Part shown: one piece after another, positions 41,352-64,000 of the stretch
How the letters are laid out: each line of letters opens with the position of its first letter
Position numbering within the stretch: position 1 is the stretch's first letter
Source of the DNA: Phormidesmis sp.
GTDB lineage: Bacteria; Cyanobacteriota; Cyanobacteriia; Leptolyngbyales; Leptolyngbyaceae
DNA: 64,000 bases
Assembly: GCA_965248535.1 (NCBI GenBank)
Contig: CBDFJR010000005.1
Span: 1,312,001 to 1,376,000 of the forward strand
Direction: 5' to 3'
Translations under genes and position numbers: made by a program
Notes under the pieces: model-generated
Databases searched by the model: none
What the model saw: only the letters and a program-made list of their open reading frames with translations
Told to the model about the DNA's origin: nothing

Positions 41352-43505
41352 ATGAACTCTAGTAGTGACTTGCTCACCGCTGCGCCGCTGCTGCCGAGCA
41401 CTGGGCTACGGGCGCTTGATACCAGCAGCCGAGTTGCGTCTGCTCAAAGCAGCCTCACTACAGATCTGCTGTGGCGGAATTCTGCTGAGGGCACCAACAC
41501 CACTTGGTCAATGGATGGGACGCGCTATGTCAAAAATCGCGATCTAACCCCGGTCAAAGACCCTAACTGGCAGCTAGTCGCCACCGGAGACTATAACCGA
41601 GACGGGCAAGACGACCTGCTCTGGCGCAACTCTGACGGCAATCTTGCCTGGTGGGTAATGAATGGCACCTCGATCGTTAAGGCCATTTATCTGACCACGC
41701 CCGCCGTCAAAGACCTCACCTGGCAAATCGTCGGCACGGGCGATTATAACCAAGATGGGCAGGTCGATCTGCTCTGGCGCAACTCTGTCGATGGCTCGGT
41801 TGCCTGGTGGGTGATGAATGGCACCTCGATCGCCAGTCCTGTCTATTTGCCAACGCTCAAAGATGCCAATCTGACGATCGTGGGCACAGGCGATGTCAAT
41901 CAAGATAAACAAGTCGATTTGCTCTGGCGCAATGCTGCGACAGGAGAAAACTTTTGGTGGGTGACCAACGGCAGCGCTGTCATCGAAAAGCGAGTCTTGC
42001 CCCCCGTCACTGACCCAAATTGGAAGATCGTGGGCACAGGCGACTTTAATGGAGATGCAAAAGCTGATCTAATATGGCGCAATTCCACCACAGGGGCCAA
42101 TAGCCTGTGGCTGATGAACGGGGTAGATGTCATTGACACAGTGGCTCTTCCAACAGTTGCCGATCAGAATTGGAAAATCATGGGGGTTTTGCGCCGTCCT
42201 GTTGAGGAGGGGTCGCCCGTGGTGGTGGCTGCGCCCACTACTTTATCAGTGGCTGAAAAGCCAATTCTCGCGACCTCCCCTACCGGAACCCTCGCCGCCG
42301 CGATCGTGCAAAAGTCGGTCAGCTTTTCGACCAGTGCTCAGGTAAACGCGGGTCATCTCAATGACTTCTATCAGGTGACGATCGCTCAGTCTGGGGTGTT
42401 TAACGCTAGTTTGACGGGGCTGTCTGGCGATGCCGATGTGCGCCTCGTGCAAGACGTTAACCAAAACCGCGAGATTGACCCCGGTGAAGTGTTGGCATGG
42501 CAGTGGGAGCGAGGCACCATCAGCGAATCGATTCGGCGGTTTTTGACGGCGGGCACCTATTATGTGCAGGTGATGAGCTATGGCAATCAGACCGCAAACT
42601 ATGGGCTGACGACCAGCTTTAGCGCGGCGATCAACGACGACCAAAAATTTGAGTTTAAGCTTGATTTTGATCAGCAGGGGTTGAATGGGTTGACCGAGGC
42701 AGCCAAAGCGGCGATCGTCGATGCCGCCAAATTTTGGGAAAGCGCCATCACCAGCCGCAGCGCCATCACTCGCTCAAATCAGTTAACCGTCACGCTCACG
42801 GGCAAAAGCTTGGTCTATAGCAATGGCAGTGCTGACACCGGAACTCTGGCATTATCTGGGCCCCAGTTTGCTCTGGATGGCCCCAATTTAATCATTAATA
42901 GTGGCACCAGCACGCTCAACGCCCGTCGATTTGGCGAATTCAATGCCAACCCTACCTATCTACGCAGCCTGATGATTCATGAGTTTGCTCACGTTTTAGG
43001 GTTTGGCACGCTGTGGGAGCCTGTTCAATTTATGAGTTCTACGGGGCAGGTGTTTAACGTTGGCAAAAATTTGATCAACCGCAGCAACGTAACCTATAAC
43101 GCCAACACTTATGCCGGATGGGCATTTGGAGAACTGACGGGCAGTTTTACTCAAACGGCCGTTCCGATCGAACCAGGAGCCTTTGCTCACTGGGATGAAA
43201 CCCGCTTTGACACCGAGTTGATGACTCCCTACGCCGAAAACCCTGGAGTCGCCACGCCCCTTAGTCAGTTAACGCTGGCTGCCCTGAGAGATCTAGGCTG
43301 GAACCTCAACTTTGGAGTGGCTCAAGCCTACTCATTGCCGCCCGTTACTTCAGAGGCTCCGGTGGTCACGTTAGCGCCCGTGATTCAAAGCGCTCCGGTG
43401 GCTGCCTCGATTAGCTGTGGGTGTGCTCGGTGTTTGTCAGCCTCATCTAAGGTTTACGCACTCAGCGGCGCAACGTTGACAGAAACAATCGGCGATCGGG
43501 TCTAG
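41352..43505 (+). CDS. Multidomain zinc metalloprotease: FG-GAP/VCBS-like repeats, PPC domain, leishmanolysin (M8)-like catalytic domain
   Basis: About five W-x-I-V-G-T-G-D-x-N-x-D...DLLWRN repeats; DFYQVT..LTGLSGDADVRL PPC segment; HEFAHVLGF...AHWDE...ELMTP. Confidence 0.85.
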   Translation: MNSSSDLLTAAPLLPSTGLRALDTSSRVASAQSSLTTDLLWRNSAEGTNTTWSMDGTRYVKNRDLTPVKDPNWQLVATGDYNRDGQDDLLWRNSDGNLAWWVMNGTSIVKAIYLTTPAVKDLTWQIVGTGDYNQDGQVDLLWRNSVDGSVAWWVMNGTSIASPVYLPTLKDANLTIVGTGDVNQDKQVDLLWRNAATGENFWWVTNGSAVIEKRVLPPVTDPNWKIVGTGDFNGDAKADLIWRNSTTGANSLWLMNGVDVIDTVALPTVADQNWKIMGVLRRPVEEGSPVVVAAPTTLSVAEKPILATSPTGTLAAAIVQKSVSFSTSAQVNAGHLNDFYQVTIAQSGVFNASLTGLSGDADVRLVQDVNQNREIDPGEVLAWQWERGTISESIRRFLTAGTYYVQVMSYGNQTANYGLTTSFSAAINDDQKFEFKLDFDQQGLNGLTEAAKAAIVDAAKFWESAITSRSAITRSNQLTVTLTGKSLVYSNGSADTGTLALSGPQFALDGPNLIINSGTSTLNARRFGEFNANPTYLRSLMIHEFAHVLGFGTLWEPVQFMSSTGQVFNVGKNLINRSNVTYNANTYAGWAFGELTGSFTQTAVPIEPGAFAHWDETRFDTELMTPYAENPGVATPLSQLTLAALRDLGWNLNFGVAQAYSLPPVTSEAPVVTLAPVIQSAPVAASISCGCARCLSASSKVYALSGATLTETIGDRV

Positions 43506-59524: not shown

Positions 59525-60133
59525 TTGAGCTACTATCGTCAAACCCCTAACGCGTTCGCCACTTCTTATCTTGAGGATTTGCGAAAAAAGATTTTAGCTT
59601 GCCCTTATTTTGCGGTCAATAATCTCAATCGTGATTTTGTCGGCACCAAAGGATTTTCGGTGGTGTTTCAGCGATCGCGCCTCGAAACCGTTGCCGAGAA
59701 GTTTCCCTTCTTTAAGAATTATCTAGATCGAGCACTTGAGTCTAGCTGCAATGCGTTTTATCTCAATCCCTTAATGCTGCAAGAAGGGTCTCGCGTCGAT
59801 CCACATATTGACCGATCGCTGCGGTCTTATTGCAAAACGATCCATCCTCCTGACAGTGTGAGCGTGCTCTATGTGCAGGTGCCATCGGGAATGCAGGGCG
59901 GTGAGCTAGTTTTGCGAAATCATAATCGTCAAGTCGGGCAAGTTAAGCCACAAGAGAATCTGTTGATTCATTTTCAGGGCGATTTGACCCACTCGGTAAA
60001 TCTGGTTAAAGTTCCCGGAACCCGACTGAGCCTAGTCTGTGAACAATATAATTTGGAGGAGTCGGAGTTGCGAGAGATTCCAGAGTTTACGATCGAGTCC
60101 CGCGTGATGAGTGCCAAGCGACCCCGATCGTGA
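59525..60133 (+). CDS. 2-oxoglutarate/Fe(II)-dependent oxygenase
   Basis: HID (HxD), GGEL, F.GDL.HSV and R.S motifs; TTG start. Confidence 0.85.
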   Translation: MSYYRQTPNAFATSYLEDLRKKILACPYFAVNNLNRDFVGTKGFSVVFQRSRLETVAEKFPFFKNYLDRALESSCNAFYLNPLMLQEGSRVDPHIDRSLRSYCKTIHPPDSVSVLYVQVPSGMQGGELVLRNHNRQVGQVKPQENLLIHFQGDLTHSVNLVKVPGTRLSLVCEQYNLEESELREIPEFTIESRVMSAKRPRS

Positions 60134-60239: not shown

Positions 60240-60259
60240 TGCCGCGATCGCAACCATCA

Positions 60260-60478
60260 TCAAGCAATTTGAAGCGTCCTTGGTTCAGGGATAGGTTCTC
60301 CTTCTGCTTGCCAAGCCTCCAAGTACATTTCAATCACTTCTTCGCCGTTATGAATGGCTTCCTCACGGGTTTTGCCATGCGTGCAGGGCATGACAACAAG
60401 ATTGGCAAACTCTGGAATCGTGACGAGGAAAAGCTGATCTTCGTCAGACCATTGAACAATCATGCTGTATCGATTCAT
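60260..60478 (-). CDS. hicB: HicB-family antitoxin (short, no HTH)
   Basis: YSMIVQWSDED..F.VTIPE...CTHGKT.EEAI..G.E.I..YL......PIP; ATG overlaps the hicA stop. Confidence 0.9.
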   Translation of the reverse strand: MNRYSMIVQWSDEDQLFLVTIPEFANLVVMPCTHGKTREEAIHNGEEVIEMYLEAWQAEGEPIPEPRTLQIA

Positions 60479-60699
60479 GAATCCCCGTCCTCCCTTAACT
60501 CTTTCAGTACAGTAAGTAACTTTGCTAGTTGTTTTTCTAGGTAGAGTGGTACATCGTCTCCATCCTTGCCTGGAATTGTCAGTGTTTCTTTGAGCAAAGG
60601 ATGTCGCCAACGCTCATGGCTGCCTTTGCCACGCTTTGGCAGATAAACAAACCCTTCACGCGCAATCTGAGTTTTTAACGCTCGAATTTTCCTGGGCAT
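60475..60699 (-). CDS. hicA: HicA-family mRNase toxin
   Basis: GF....RGKGSH..W.HP...TIPG motif. Confidence 0.9.
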   Translation of the reverse strand: MPRKIRALKTQIAREGFVYLPKRGKGSHERWRHPLLKETLTIPGKDGDDVPLYLEKQLAKLLTVLKELREDGDS

Positions 60700-60740
60700 C
60701 GATATTGCCTAACTTTTCCCCTATTCTTTTTATTATCCTA

Positions 60741-60857
60741 TTAAGAGTGCCGGAGAACGTAAATGGGATCGCGTTCTGCAATCTCTCAAAAGCGGATGTA
60801 GTGCGCCATCAGTTGGTGCAGCGCATTGTCGAAGCTTATGAAGAGTTTGAGCAGTAG
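60741..60857 (+). pseudogene. phoH: Orphan 3' tail of a PhoH-family (YbeZ-like) gene, copy 1
   Basis: LRVPENVNGIAFCNLSKADVVRHQLVQRIVEAYEEFEQ* matches the PhoH C-terminal DVVRH-x-LV-x-x-IV-x-AY signature. Confidence 0.8.
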
Positions 60858-60920
60858 TTCACTGAGAGGGGACGAAATGCAGCGTAATGGCAAGGACAAA
60901 ATCAGCCCCTAATTCGCCTC

Positions 60921-61166
60921 TCATTCCCCTGTGTAGAAATAGGAAAACAGCTCTTCTTCAGGAATATATTGGCTTGCTTGCCGAAGAATGACTCTACAGG
61001 TTCCTGTATCTAGCTGCTTATGATTTGGTACGATTAGCGTCTCGTTGCCTGATTCTCCAACTCGGCGGAGTTTAATGTGACTTCCTTTCTGGCTGTGAAC
61101 TTGAAATCCAAACGATTCGAGGATTGAAATCACACCTTCCGCAGATAAGCGTTTCAGCTTAGGCAT
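60921..61166 (-). CDS. hicA: HicA-family toxin (second type)
   Basis: L...GF......KGSHIKL...VPNH..L..GT...I. Confidence 0.9.
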   Translation of the reverse strand: MPKLKRLSAEGVISILESFGFQVHSQKGSHIKLRRVGESGNETLIVPNHKQLDTGTCRVILRQASQYIPEEELFSYFYTGE

Positions 61167-61392
61167 ACTGTGGAACTAGCTCAAACGTAACCACGATCGA
61201 GGGTTGAGAGATGACTTGCAATCGGCTCAAATCTTCATCTTCGAGATACAGAGAAACCGCCTCACTCAGATTTTGCATGACTTCATCCAAGGTGTCTCCC
61301 TGAGTCACAATGGCAAACTCTTGGCACTCGGCAACATATCCGCTTTGGTCGCCCGGATAAACTGTTGCGTGGATCTTTTCTCGAAGGGTCAT
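61159..61392 (-). CDS. hicB: HicB-family antitoxin (second type, upstream of its toxin)
   Basis: GYVAEC....VTQGDTLDE...NL.EAV.LYL. Confidence 0.88.
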   Translation of the reverse strand: MTLREKIHATVYPGDQSGYVAECQEFAIVTQGDTLDEVMQNLSEAVSLYLEDEDLSRLQVISQPSIVVTFELVPQYA

Positions 61393-61426
61393 TGACTCTC
61401 ACAGGAATTAAGTGGGTTTAATTTTA

Positions 61427-61454
61427 GCGTAGCACTCCGGCGAAGTGCGATCGT
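61427..61454. repeat. Small hairpin insertion in a HIP1-like site (SDR-like)
   Basis: GCG[TAGCACTCCGGCGAAGTGCG]ATCGT with internal stem GCACT/AGTGC. Confidence 0.4.
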
Positions 61455-61505
61455 ACTTTTTCCCAACTCAATTCTTAATCCCCGTAGTAGCGATCGCAAC
61501 CATCA

Positions 61506-61724
61506 TCAAGCAATTTGAAGCGTCCTTGGTTCAGGGATAGGTTCTCCTTCTGCTTGCCAAGCCTCTAAGTACATTTCAATCACTTCTTCGCCGTTATGAA
61601 TGGCTTCCTCACGGGTTTTGCCATGCGTGCAGGGCATGACAACAAGATTGGCAAACTCTGGAATCGTGACGAGGAAAAGCTGATCTTCGTCAGACCATTG
61701 AACAATCATGCTGTATCGATTCAT
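61506..61724 (-). CDS. hicB: HicB-family antitoxin, duplicate
   Basis: Protein identical to 60260-60478. Confidence 0.9.
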   Translation of the reverse strand: MNRYSMIVQWSDEDQLFLVTIPEFANLVVMPCTHGKTREEAIHNGEEVIEMYLEAWQAEGEPIPEPRTLQIA

Positions 61725-61945
61725 GAATCCCCGTCCTCCCTTAACTCTTTCAGTACAGTAAGTAACTTTGCTAGTTGTTTTTCTAGGTAGAGTGGTACAT
61801 CGTCTCCATCTCTGCCTGGAATTGTCAGTGTTTCTTTGAGCGAAGGATGTCGCCAACGCTCATGGCTGCCTTTGCCACGCTTTGGCAGATAAACAAACCC
61901 TTCACGCGCAATCTGAGTTTTTAACGCTCGAATTTTCCTGGGCAT
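61721..61945 (-). CDS. hicA: HicA-family toxin, duplicate
   Basis: Differs from copy 1 by L>S and K>R. Confidence 0.9.
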   Translation of the reverse strand: MPRKIRALKTQIAREGFVYLPKRGKGSHERWRHPSLKETLTIPGRDGDDVPLYLEKQLAKLLTVLKELREDGDS

Positions 61946-61986
61946 CGATATTGCCTAACTTTTCCCCTATTCTTTTTATTATCCTA

Positions 61987-62100
61987 TTAAGAGTGCCGGA
62001 GAACGTAGATGGAATCGCGTTCTGCAATCTCTCAAAAGCGGATGTGGTGCGACATCAGTTGGTGCAGCGCACTGTCAAGGCTTATGAGGTGTTTGAGTAA
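61987..62100 (+). pseudogene. phoH: Orphan 3' tail of a PhoH-family gene, copy 2
   Basis: LRVPENVDGIAFCNLSKADVVRHQLVQRTVKAYEVFE*. Confidence 0.8.
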
Positions 62101-62179
62101 TAACGCACCACCGATAGCAACGAGCCTCAAACTCAGCACGCCTATTTTTCAACCAGCCGCTGCATTTGATTTGTTATAC
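62097..62179 (-). repeat. attC-like integron recombination site
   Basis: Minus strand reads GTATAAC-AAATC-AAATGCAGCGG...GTGCTGAGTTTGAGG...GCTATCGGTGGTGC-GTTATTA: complementary TAAC/GTTA cores about 80 bp apart with partly paired inner arms. Confidence 0.55.
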
Positions 62180-62225
62180 TTCTGAAGATCGAATCACTGG
62201 TCAGTTTTGGGAAGTGAAGTGCAGG

Positions 62226-63371
62226 ATGCTAGACAGCAAGCAGCAAGCAGAAGAAGAGCTGGAGAATGCTGATCTTGGTCTGGGTGTTGACCCCGATGAA
62301 GATGAAAGTATAATTCAGCCGTTTGACCCTGAATTAATTAGGGTTGAAACTCGACCGATGACAATTGACCTGTTGCTACAACGTATTAAATATGAGGAGC
62401 TTAATCTAACGCCAGATTTTCAGCGGAAGGACGGGATTTGGAATCCTCGTACTAAAAGTCGTCTCATTGAATCCATCCTTATTCGGATTCCACTGCCAGC
62501 TTTTTACATGGATGCCACTGATGAGGATAAGTGGGTAGTTATTGACGGCTTACAAAGATTAACGACCTTGAAAATGTTTGTTAATGATAAATCACTAAAA
62601 CTTAGCGAACTTGAGTTTTTGACCCAGCTTGAAAATAAAACTTTTGAGGAATTGCCACGCAATCTACAACGACGAATTATTGAAACTCAAGTCACAGTCT
62701 ATTTAATTGAGAAAGGAACGCCTAGCAAAGTTAAATTTAATATCTTTAAACGCATCAATACTGGTGGCTTGCCGTTATCGTTACAAGAAATTCGCCATGC
62801 TCTAAATATTGGTCATTCAACTAGGTTTTTGGAGAAACTTGCTAACTCGGCTGAGTTCAAGAAAGCAACTGCTCATAGAAACTTCAGCCAACGGATGGCA
62901 GATCGTGAGTTCATACTACGATTTCTAGCTTTTGTGATTCATCCCTACACCGACTACAAAGCGACAGAGTTTGATAGCTTTCTGAGTGACGTGATGGCAG
63001 AGATTAATGAAATGAGTGAACAGAGAATTAACGATCTGGAACTGAAATTTAGCAAGGCTATGATTGCTGCTTACGAAATTTTTGGCAATGATGCTTTTCG
63101 TAAGCGATCCAGACAAGATGCCCCAAGGTCACCAATTAATAAAGCATTGTTTGAATCTTGGTCAGTTAGTCTAAGTCAGTTAAGTAGGGATCAGATTCAA
63201 ACCTTGGTAGAACGTAAAGAGCAATTGAAAATGGGCTTTATTGGACTCATGAACGATCGCGAAGTGGAGCCTAAATTTGAGTCATCCATCTCTCAAGGAA
63301 CGGGAGATACTAGAAAAGTCAAACGTAGGTTCAGTGCTATTGAGCAGTTGATTCAAGAGGTCTTAGCGTGA
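62226..63371 (+). CDS. DUF262 (ParB-like) protein; putative Menshen NsnA
   Basis: PDFQR...W, SRLIESILIRIPLP, IDGLQRL and IFKRINTGG; AT-rich; likely ATG 62226. Confidence 0.85.
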   Translation: MLDSKQQAEEELENADLGLGVDPDEDESIIQPFDPELIRVETRPMTIDLLLQRIKYEELNLTPDFQRKDGIWNPRTKSRLIESILIRIPLPAFYMDATDEDKWVVIDGLQRLTTLKMFVNDKSLKLSELEFLTQLENKTFEELPRNLQRRIIETQVTVYLIEKGTPSKVKFNIFKRINTGGLPLSLQEIRHALNIGHSTRFLEKLANSAEFKKATAHRNFSQRMADREFILRFLAFVIHPYTDYKATEFDSFLSDVMAEINEMSEQRINDLELKFSKAMIAAYEIFGNDAFRKRSRQDAPRSPINKALFESWSVSLSQLSRDQIQTLVERKEQLKMGFIGLMNDREVEPKFESSISQGTGDTRKVKRRFSAIEQLIQEVLA

Positions 63372-64000
63372 TCTGCCAACTGCGCTTACAAAACTTCAAA
63401 CGATTTGAGGATCAATCTTTAGAACTTGGAGCATTGACTCTCCTTTCAGGACTCAATGGAATGGGGAAATCTTCCGTTCTGCAATCCCTTTTGCTGTTGC
63501 GTCAGTCATATCAACAAGGATTATTAGAATCTACTGGTTTAGCCTTAAACGGCGATTTAGTCCGTATTGGCACTGCCAGAGATGCTCTATTTGAGGATGC
63601 GAGAGAGGACAAAATTGAATTTGTTCTTACTTTTAGAAATGGCAGTGAAGCAATCTGGCAGTTTGGCTATGATCCTGAAGCAGATATTTTAGGGCTGACT
63701 TCATCTGCTGTGCCATCTGAAACTTACCAACTCAGCTTATTTGGTGATAATTTTCAATACTTGCAAGCTGAACGTCTTGGGCCTCGAACCTCTTTTGCAA
63801 TATCTGATTTTCAAGTGCGACAGCATCGTCAGTTAGGAACTATGGGCGAGTATGCTGCCCACTTCCTATCCATTTTTAGAGACTCTGAAATTTCAACTCC
63901 TACGCTCAGTCATCCGCAAGCAAAGTCTTTAAACTTGCTGAACCAAGTTGAGGCTTGGTTGGGTGAAATTAGTCCTGGAACTCGGATTCATATCGTTGAT
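63368..64000 (+). CDS. ABC-type AAA ATPase (DUF3696-associated type), 5' part; putative Menshen NsnB
   Basis: GTG start overlapping the DUF262 stop (GTGA). Reads ICQLRLQNFKRF..LTLLSGLNGMGKSSVLQSLLLLRQS (Walker A), LNGDLV.IG and YLQAERLGPR; open to the window end. Confidence 0.82.
   Translation, partial: MICQLRLQNFKRFEDQSLELGALTLLSGLNGMGKSSVLQSLLLLRQSYQQGLLESTGLALNGDLVRIGTARDALFEDAREDKIEFVLTFRNGSEAIWQFGYDPEADILGLTSSAVPSETYQLSLFGDNFQYLQAERLGPRTSFAISDFQVRQHRQLGTMGEYAAHFLSIFRDSEISTPTLSHPQAKSLNLLNQVEAWLGEISPGTRIHIVD

Follow-up and report, generated by a model that had tools for sequence, protein, structure and literature searches.

Introduction

Genomic islands in the 3′ end of a protein-coding gene, for example SGI1 at trmE, consist of the restored gene, the cargo and the displaced 3′ end, and tandem arrays of them are possible. 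Insertion with long target duplication was reportedly described by Nobusato et al. in 2000. As set out by Furuta, Abe and Kobayashi (2010, PMC2853133), it places an insert of under 20 kb between direct repeats of over 30 bp and of variable length, and the repeats often span a start or stop codon, so that the target gene survives. The cases have no mobility gene, have empty sites in relatives and come mostly from naturally competent species, Microcystis included. They were described for restriction-modification genes and ascribed to the DNA cutting of these genes, and the word “toxin” is absent from that paper. In E. coli conjugation with an engineered plasmid, circularisation followed by a single crossover gave duplications in 56 of 60 clones (109–950 bp in 14 sequenced clones), while true homology-facilitated illegitimate recombination (HFIR) gave deletions and not duplications, and the joints showed no motif (PMC3240628). 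A ParDE-like module lies between identical 152-bp direct repeats in Microcystis PCC 7806 (PMC7935541). The Menshen system, NsnABC, consists of a ParB-DUF262 sensor, an ABC ATPase with DUF3696, and NsnC, in which an N-terminal part is joined to a C-terminal toxin-like domain (PMC12065111).

The window analysed here is a stretch of 64,000 nucleotides from a Phormidesmis genome, referred to as G000 and compared with congeners such as G062, G064 and G065. It carries two orphan phoH 3′ ends (tails) in a layout already described as insertion with long target duplication (PMC2853133). The scar type itself is known; the new part is that it is repeated at several genes, holds toxin–antitoxin (TA) or Menshen cargo and frequently ends at CGATCG, a palindrome abundant in cyanobacteria. 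Insertion with long target duplication, without an integrase, probably left the tails as scars in the variable interval that separates phoH from mfd, two convergent core genes.

Results

The features of the island are listed in Table 1. Alignment of the two repeat units gave 97.9% identity over 608 bp, with four differences in the hicAB part (60320, 60565, 60566 and 60596; 99.2% identical) and nine in the tail part, spanning 60762–60844, exactly as counted in the preliminary description. The density of differences is 4/515 in hicAB versus 9/93 in the tail (Fisher p = 1.4e-5). Identity between the units stops exactly at the left-end HIP1 octamer, with none further left, and the spacing from unit 1 to unit 2 is 1246 bp. 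HicA and HicB genes are adjacent in both types of pair; the first pair scores above both Pfam cut-offs, and in the second type HicA scores above and HicB below. Second-type hicBA DNA in relatives was located by translated queries, and its position was confirmed by blastn and ORFs. The CGATCG site inside this type is the start of a hicB2-only module in G064, L128, L129 and a run X2 contig. To the left of the island, the 2OG-Fe(II) oxygenase gene has a downstream neighbour that varies across congeners.

Table 1 Features of the island and its flanks (positions in the window or, where stated, beyond it).
Feature	Position	Strand	Evidence or remark
2OG-Fe(II) oxygenase gene, left flank	59525..60133	+	PF13640
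HIP1 octamer GCGATCGC, exact left end of unit 1	60244..60251		sequence
Repeat unit 1 (hicAB pair, junction, phoH tail)	60244..60851	+	
hicB antitoxin copy 1, ~72 aa from likely ATG	60260..60478	-	PF15919 E 1.5e-6
hicA toxin copy 1, 74 aa	60475..60699	-	PF07927 E 7.7e-10
Junction filler, 17 bases, between hicA upstream region and tail 1	60742..60758	+	junction type A
phoH tail 1, codons 286-317 + stop	60759..60857	+	PF02562; first base directly follows phoH's CGATCG
hicA toxin, second type, 81 aa	60921..61166	-	PF07927 E 1.1e-15
hicB-like antitoxin, second type, 77 aa	61159..61392	-	beside hicA; PF15919 E 0.005, below cut-off
CGATCG site inside second hicBA type	61194..61199		start of hicB2-only module in relatives
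HIP1 octamer, exact left end of unit 2	61490..61497		
Repeat unit 2	61490..62097	+	
hicB copy 2	61506..61724	-	copy of 60260-60478
hicA copy 2	61721..61945	-	two amino-acid changes vs copy 1
phoH tail 2, decayed	62005..62103	+	PF02562; I>T, E>K, E>V, Q>stop
nsnA (ParB-DUF262), Menshen	62226..63371	+	PADLOC NsnA E 5.6e-147; PF03235
nsnB ABC ATPase, Menshen	63368..64000 in window, runs to 64477	+	PADLOC NsnB E 2.3e-124
nsnC, Menshen, beyond window	64481-65401		PADLOC NsnC E 4.9e-41
mfd 3′ end, convergent, beyond window	65429		ORFs

The duplicated units are extremely improbable as an assembly artefact, because the copies differ at 13 positions, have unique flanks and have their junctions bridged by run X4 contigs. 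These contigs join the copy-2 hicA letters to tail 2 (61680–62042) and tail 2 to nsnA (62013–62351), each with 0 differences, although runs X3 and X4 may be the source sample itself; runs X1 and X2 contain no more than a small share. The 13 differences are distributed in a biologically meaningful pattern, and homologous tail layouts are present in G062, G064, L128 and L131. In favour of an artefact, no record spanning both units was found among the run contigs.

Both tails match Pfam PhoH PF02562 at positions 173–205 (E 8.6e-7 and 4.1e-6), which agrees with their earlier identification. Their ends were placed correctly in the preliminary description, but the starts given there (60741 and 61987) are too early: the first 18 bases are not phoH, and homology begins at 60759 and 62005, in codon 286. 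Four synonymous changes named earlier (GGG/GGA, GTA/GTG, CGC/CGA and GAA/GAG) are real, and the tails also differ at the protein level (N/D, I/T, E/K, E/V and Q/stop). Tail 1 shows one amino-acid departure from 13 intact phoH alleles; tail 2 is decayed and is the older orphan of the two. The window contains no intact phoH, as first noted, and the intact gene sits on another contig (G000:C2:350049-351002), ~82% identical to the tails. An origin of the tails from this gene was ruled out by the 18 and 17 differences counted in 96 bases. The proposal that the tails are different phoH alleles was upheld, and they appear to have arrived with cargo that is seen behind phoH in relatives.

Within the genus, 3 of 8 genomes carry tail-type scars, against 0 of 82 other genomes of the family, and phoH as a family-wide landing site was ruled out by the latter count. 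As in long target duplication, the length of the duplication varies, with start points at codon ~264 (G064), ~276 (L128, L131) and 286 (G000, G062), and direct repeats well over 30 bp (~99–165 bases) surround inserts under 20 kb (0.85–1.1 kb) in G062, G064 and L128. The window differs from the complete layout in that the upstream intact copy is missing. The same junction occurs with a different tail allele and different cargo in tail 1, tail 2 and G062, and again in L128 and L131. Of the three phoH joints, a single one lies directly against CGATCG, and the motif is not retained there. Outside the genus, a two-piece phoH match in G034 has the appearance of a frameshifted gene.

Six of the 7 congeners have phoH and mfd facing each other at one locus with variable cargo between them; the locus of G065 contains an IS-linked inversion. 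The cargo among congeners comprises TA pairs, Menshen, a defence RT and HNH, and the earlier idea of a cargo hotspot downstream of phoH is borne out by this variation. Intact phoH is directly followed by hicBA2 in G062 and L135 and by Menshen in G065 and L133. The sites in L135, G065 and L133 are one-copy empty sites of the kind known from long target duplication, as are hisIE in G062, where one overlapping copy is present, and tsaE in G062 and G065. The DUF262/ATPase operon reported behind tail 2 is present but was incomplete, its third gene lying outside the window; by PADLOC profiles it is the Menshen system, with nsnA, nsnB and nsnC in order and a predicted anti-phage function. It has the same three-gene composition as the Menshen system of PMC12065111 and figures here only as cargo. 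The island as a whole is a mosaic of the phoH–mfd cargo alleles of congeners.

The second anchor of the slot is the mfd 3′ end, which is absent from the preliminary description, as are the CGATCG/HIP1 link and the published precedent for the layout. Its last 270 bases are 97% identical between G000 and G062, and the preceding 270 bases 90%. Import of the whole island together with all of mfd was rejected, given that whole-gene identity to G062 is ordinary (88.6%) and only the last 270 bases stand out. A reciprocal rearrangement of phoH|mfd with 2OG|tRNA-Lys was likewise rejected: among loci cut from 6 genomes each, no congener has the 2OG gene beside tRNA-Lys/aroC, and the neighbours are shuffled.

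Gene-end duplications were also found in G000 at tsaE, hisIE, glycogen synthase, TPR and WD40 genes, mostly around TA cargo. Ten strict cases were obtained after 36 CRISPR rows had been removed from 46. Eight of their inserts were scanned, and a Pfam TA family was detected in five (DUF4160/DUF2442, PIN twice, RelE and DUF433/DUF5615); the remaining three held a UPF0175 gene with a partner without match, DUF6887, and an ORF without match. At the TPR locus it is the orphan copy, not the intact gene, that carries the 10–17 bases following the gene in 4/4 congeners. No convincing gene-end duplication was seen in an unbiased sample (G065, 1.2 Mb; G036, 0.4 Mb; G028, 0.4 Mb), where the one gene-end row per genome resembled IS or integron repeats, and self-comparison gave flanking repeats in only 4 of 28 hicAB1-centred loci. 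There appears to be nothing special to phoH, the locus being one example of a repeated scar.

The tails could instead be attR relics of site-specific elements that target and restore the phoH 3′ end, the integrase having been lost or acting in trans. Such a history would account for a layout equal to that of islands in gene 3′ ends, for the type A junction filler common to G000 and G062, and for the outlying last 50 bases of the intact G000 phoH (71–78% to congeners), as for a replaced end. The three start codons, the 120 kb around the island free of any recombinase and the recurrence of the scar at many unrelated genes nevertheless argue that the tails are not att sites. The inserts are ~1 kb long with no other mobile element, as in long target duplication, and no recombinase gene was found in any phoH–mfd interval examined; the nearest tyrosine recombinase (PF00589) is ~324 kb from the island and the nearest serine recombinase (PF00239, PF07508) ~123 kb, which extends the earlier remark that the window lacks an integrase. 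Islands such as SGI1 depend on an integrase together with a short, fixed core, and here neither a cognate integrase beside the element nor a fixed crossover position was found. Among the literature matches listed for phoH and islands, phoH is unmentioned. An attR origin is therefore quite improbable, and the earlier suggestion of a phoH-specific att site is abandoned, the scars being also confined to one genus; what survives of the landing-pad idea is homologous reuse, seen twice over in one junction with different alleles and cargo.

In a purely intragenomic origin, the hicAB–tail unit would have been duplicated when phoH and a single old tail underwent unequal crossover or gene conversion, with no serial capture from donors. 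A crossover step of this kind probably contributed: the hicAB parts are nearly identical, the unit spacing equals the phoH-to-tail unit of G062, and a near-intact tail 1 with a decayed tail 2 is what crossover predicts. As the full explanation it is unlikely, since it cannot make the first tail, leaves three independent joints and the mixture of G062-type and G065-type cargo unexplained, and does not fit tails so distant from the phoH of G000 itself.

CGATCG occurs once per 224 bases. It was found at the ends of 12 of 26 low-copy repeats of G000 (5.0 expected, p = 0.002) and of 11 of 20 repeats at congener TA loci, the HepT family being left out (4.35 expected, p = 0.0007), an excess of ~2.5x over chance in both sets, compared with 7/38 in a paralog control (8.0 expected). 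Within the strict class of G000 the motif lies at the inner end in 5/10 (1.3 expected) and at the outer end in 1/10; at congener TA loci the inner-end count is only 1/5. A first strict test gave 6/46 (p = 0.052); a single CRISPR array had supplied 36 of the rows, and these were removed after inspection. The unbiased 2.0-Mb sample of three relatives showed no excess (G065 1/9, G036 2/15, G028 1/20) but is underpowered, with many rows resembling integron attC sites and paralog controls obtained for one of the three sets only. The control hexamers CGTACG, CAATTG and GCTAGC occurred too seldom for a useful comparison. Conserved HIP1 sites could also bias where alignments of old repeats end.

A dedicated HIP1-specific recombinase that cuts and joins cassettes at GCGATCGC, in the manner of an integron, is very unlikely. 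Both units do begin on HIP1, the hicB2-only module begins at CGATCG in several relatives, and PMC4390886 cites site-specific recombination at HIP1. The motif is, however, missing from about half of the repeat ends and from two of the three phoH joints, shows no excess in the unbiased sample and has no candidate enzyme. The repeats here are phoH coding sequence.

Discussion

TA and anti-phage modules were probably added serially, with no integrase, at a variable chromosomal spot, and the TA pairs may, as first suggested, stabilise the array. The steps of such an insertion with long target duplication are all read from their products, no event having been observed, and the 17-base filler of junction A does not follow from them. 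A tail would be born when DNA of a relative, made up of a phoH 3′ end and cargo, recombines by one crossover within phoH while the other end of the fragment is joined illegitimately; a fragment that first circularises and then integrates by a single crossover would give the same product. The resulting order would be intact phoH, new cargo, joint, old phoH end and old cargo, with a joint of variable position and, genome-wide, such repeat ends biased toward CGATCG. ComEC is present in G000. Tail and phoH end form roughly 90%-identical direct repeats, so that homologous crossovers between them could swap or stack the cargo behind them, as suggested by units 1 and 2, which share one junction and carry two alleles and two cargoes. 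In G000 the island is detached from intact phoH, which lies on a different contig; this may reflect either a rearrangement or an import for which the mfd 3′ end served as the anchor.

The combination of one homologous anchor with one illegitimate joint resembles that of PMC3240628, and the tails fall within its duplication size range. Unlike the criterion of the 2010 screen, the insert holds no restriction and modification genes, its cargo being HicAB, other TA pairs and Menshen. Further differences from the cases of PMC2853133 are the repeated hits on one slot, the apparent reuse of tails in swaps and the bias of repeat ends toward CGATCG. In the PCC 7806 module, too, long direct repeats enclose a cyanobacterial TA pair close behind a gene; its repeats differ in starting 14 bp past the stop codon and in being identical, and PMC7935541 offers neither a mechanism nor a link to HIP1.

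We tentatively propose, as a possibility short of an even chance, that HIP1-rich cyanobacteria have a host-encoded capture route, free of any integrase, whose illegitimate joint falls preferentially on CGATCG/HIP1: incoming DNA would require homology at no more than one gene end, with CGATCG as the joining point at the other. In this way TA and defence modules would be added and not swapped, and the duplicated tails would become new landing pads. The literature searched contained no link of HIP1 to gene-end duplication or TA insertion; the supplements of PMC2853133, which hold cyanobacterial cases, and older primary papers lie outside this coverage.

Small TA islets were often without mobile elements in a Photorhabdus study (PMC13617665). 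The scars described here offer a route for TA pairs and defence systems without a mobility gene to reach and accumulate in chromosomes, and they extend long-target-duplication insertion beyond restriction-modification genes to TA and Menshen cargo. The role of HIP1 is an open question (PMC13756078; bioRxiv 10.1101/2024.09.10.611283), and the CGATCG bias, if causal, bears on what HIP1 does. If the proposed joining at CGATCG is true, HIP1, a methylatable site, would take part in assembling the accessory and defence genome.

Duplicated units and orphan phoH tails

The two 608-bp units of the island align at 97.9% identity; hicAB contributes 4 differing positions and the tail 9 (contrast p = 1.4e-5), so the duplication and its uneven divergence had been described correctly. 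Each tail aligns with the terminal part of the PhoH model and is a phoH 3' end as proposed, but the starts assigned to the tails, 60741 and 61987, were not retained: homology begins at 60759 and 62005, the base directly after a CGATCG of the intact gene. Compared with 13 intact alleles, tail 1 departs by one amino acid and tail 2 by four, which identifies tail 2 as the older orphan.

The intact phoH of this genome (G000) lies on contig C2, followed by tRNA-Lys and aroC; from the translations, we take the local order to be ffh-rpsP-khpA-phoH. Its end is an outlier, with a mean of 17.8 differences over 96 compared with 10.4 among congeners, and fits either a replaced end or exclusion from exchange. 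A second PhoH-family gene is unrelated to the tails.

Features, phoH–mfd intervals and associated side observations. Numbers without prefix are window positions; G059–G065 are congeners, L numbers cut-out loci (L128–L135 from metagenomes) and C numbers contigs of G000.
Locus	Position	Feature
Unit 1	60244–60851	hicAB1, junction, tail 1
Unit 2	61490–62097	hicAB1, junction, tail 2
Window	41548–42090	90-base repeats, four copies, period ~150 bases; probably a repeat-domain protein
Window	60213	Run X4 contig diverges leftward; another strain or locus therefore carries the 30 bases preceding HIP1 with a different flank
L006	10049–10100 (G000:C2:350049–350100)	Last 50 bases of intact phoH, 71–78% to all congeners (rest 84–88%)
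G000	C5:715475–716080	Second PhoH-family gene, in a 444-codon frame
L005	2481–3401	NsnC, with a Gp49/RelE-like domain at its end (PF05973, E 7.8e-5, just under cut-off)
L005	7905–8763 (G000:C5:1381905–1382763)	BrnT/BrnA-like TA pair, ~8 kb past the tails, flanked by 130-bp direct repeats (94%); apparently a gene-start duplication, ends without CGATCG
G059	L040:9060–10637	DRT4/DRT6-type defence reverse transcriptase in the slot, with mazEF
G060		Two unknown ORFs, mazEF
G061		mazEF
G062		hicBA2-hicAB1-tail-HNH
G063		Porin-like gene instead
G064		PIN pair-tail-higBA-hicB2-unknown-mazEF
G065	L044:1370–13558	Menshen operon behind phoH, with IS-like ORFs inserted and an inversion dividing it
L128		phoH-hicB2-hicAB1-tail-ORF-mazEF-mfd
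L129		As L128 (phoH-hicB2-hicAB1-tail...), incomplete
L130		G060-like
L131		Junction of L128, different allele, different cargo
L132		Relative at greater distance
L133		phoH-Menshen-mfd
L134		phoH-mazEF-mfd
L135		phoH-hicBA2
L087; L090	1538–2383; 1418–2368	ParE-containing TA pairs, each flanked by two repeats with a further match close to a remote gene's 3' end (C2:2410576–2412633; C2:439987–442488)
L125 (G062)	1064–2783	DUF4160/DUF2442 pair inside a 49-bp 3'-end duplication; the duplicated gene ends in RFCIGK and is presumably mnmE/trmE-like

A variable cargo slot between phoH and mfd

In six of the seven congeners, phoH and mfd occupy one locus with cargo between them, G063 being the exception. 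Different modules fill the interval across the congeners and the eight loci obtained from a metagenome scan, in agreement with the earlier proposal of a phoH-linked cargo hotspot. In contigs of run X1, too, hicBA2 and the Menshen leader adjoin a phoH end.

The window island carries two HicA/HicB-type pairs and a complete Menshen operon ending 28 bases from the convergent mfd, at a G+C of 0.43–0.46 compared with 0.52 in the flanks. Tail 1 stands with G062-type cargo and tail 2 with G065-type cargo; because its modules match different phoH–mfd alleles of relatives, the island is a mosaic. Tails were present in three of eight genomes of the genus and in none of 82 other genomes of the family. A ~50-base AT-rich-to-GGGTCTGAC motif, possibly a small dispersed element, was observed in L038, L040, L041, L043, L053, L066, L128 and L130; it lies behind phoH ends and tails, and also behind the 2OG gene in G064 and near tRNA-Lys in G059.

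Tails are reused but do not behave as att sites

The proposal that the phoH 3' end is an att site is not supported. Tails start at three codons, ~264 (G064), ~276 (L128, L131; junction B) and 286 (G000, G062; junction A), no recombinase gene was found in the ~1-kb inserts, and the recombinases nearest to the island are ~123 kb and ~324 kb away. The companion idea of tails as reusable landing points is upheld: three alleles with three cargoes follow junction A, two of each follow junction B, and a tail, once formed, is reused. The other anchor, mfd, likewise shows exchange, since G000 and G062 share 97% identity over its last 270 bases, compared with 90% over the preceding 270.

The same scar at other genes

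A special role for phoH as target was not borne out, as the same scar occurs at unrelated genes of G000. Self-comparison gave 81 spaced repeat pairs, merged into 38 non-paralogous and 38 paralogous. A strict screen for gene-end duplications returned 46 rows. A single CRISPR array accounted for 36 of them; the other 10 comprise TPR genes, a haemagglutinin-like gene, a WD40 gene, glycogen synthase, tsaE and hisIE, with three further cases less clear. Pfam toxin–antitoxin (TA) families occurred in five of the eight inserts that were scanned, and the other three contained small genes with weaker or no annotation. Empty sites were found for hisIE in G062 (clean) and for tsaE in G062 and G065. At the TPR locus, the ancestral downstream bases are retained behind the orphan copy, which is thus the displaced original end. 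The same TA modules occupy other loci in congeners. The repeats around the ParE-containing pairs resemble the detached tails of the window but may instead be dispersed repeats.

CGATCG at repeat ends

The left end of both units is exactly HIP1, the cyanobacterial octamer around CGATCG (one per 979 bases in G000, a density that marks the genome as probably cyanobacterial), and the hicB2-only module of relatives starts on the CGATCG at window 61194. With a repeat end scored within 4 bases of CGATCG and 1000 shifts as null, 18 of 38 non-paralogous repeats of G000 carried the motif (7.1 expected; 0/1000 shifts) compared with 7 of 38 paralogous pairs (8.0 expected). One repeat per locus with at most three copies gave 12/26 (5.0 expected, p = 0.002), an excess stable with 2-base and 8-base windows. 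In the strict class the motif lay at the inner end in 5/10 (1.3 expected, p = 0.003) and at the outer end in 1/10. Spaced repeats were present at 22 of 88 TA-centred loci from five congeners, representing 20 distinct loci; 11 of the 20 carried the motif at an end (4.35 expected, p = 0.0007), but the strict subclass gave 1/5. An unbiased 2.0 Mb of three relatives, by contrast, yielded neither a CGATCG excess nor a convincing gene-end duplication, and only one phoH joint in three lies against the motif. CGATCG at repeat ends is a bias of ~2.5-fold, from counts that include non-independent kin loci, and no rule. Dense repeats with GTTAG/CTAAC ends in G036, G028 and G065 (L192–L193, L203–L205, L168) resemble integron attC arrays.

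Proposed mechanism and relation to known systems

The pattern is best explained by homologous recombination on one side, at a gene end, with the opposite end joined illegitimately; alternatively, the fragment may have circularised first and entered by a single crossover. In either case the tails would afterwards have served homologous shuffling. What is observed directly are the products. Uptake would putatively be by transformation (ComEC is present in G000), CGATCG may have a role in the joint, and TA pairs may stabilise the array. In an E. coli experiment, the circular route gave 109–950-bp duplications (PMC3240628).

The layout is that of 'insertion with long target duplication', and all structural features set out for it in the accessible part of PMC2853133 are found here, but the restriction-modification cargo of that class is absent. 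In the accessible portion of PMC3874152 the pattern appears solely among the references, and PMC7935541 describes 152-bp repeats flanking a TA pair of Microcystis, giving no mechanism. Other reports tie HIP1 to a deletion, plasmid recombination and transformation efficiency (PMC4390886; PMC13756078; bioRxiv 10.1101/2024.09.10.611283; PMC9239245); no paper linking HIP1 to gene-end duplications was found. The preliminary description was thus partly right, in its cargo slot and tail reuse but not in its att site or phoH-specificity. The layout itself is known; what appears new is the CGATCG bias together with TA and defence cargo, rather than phoH.
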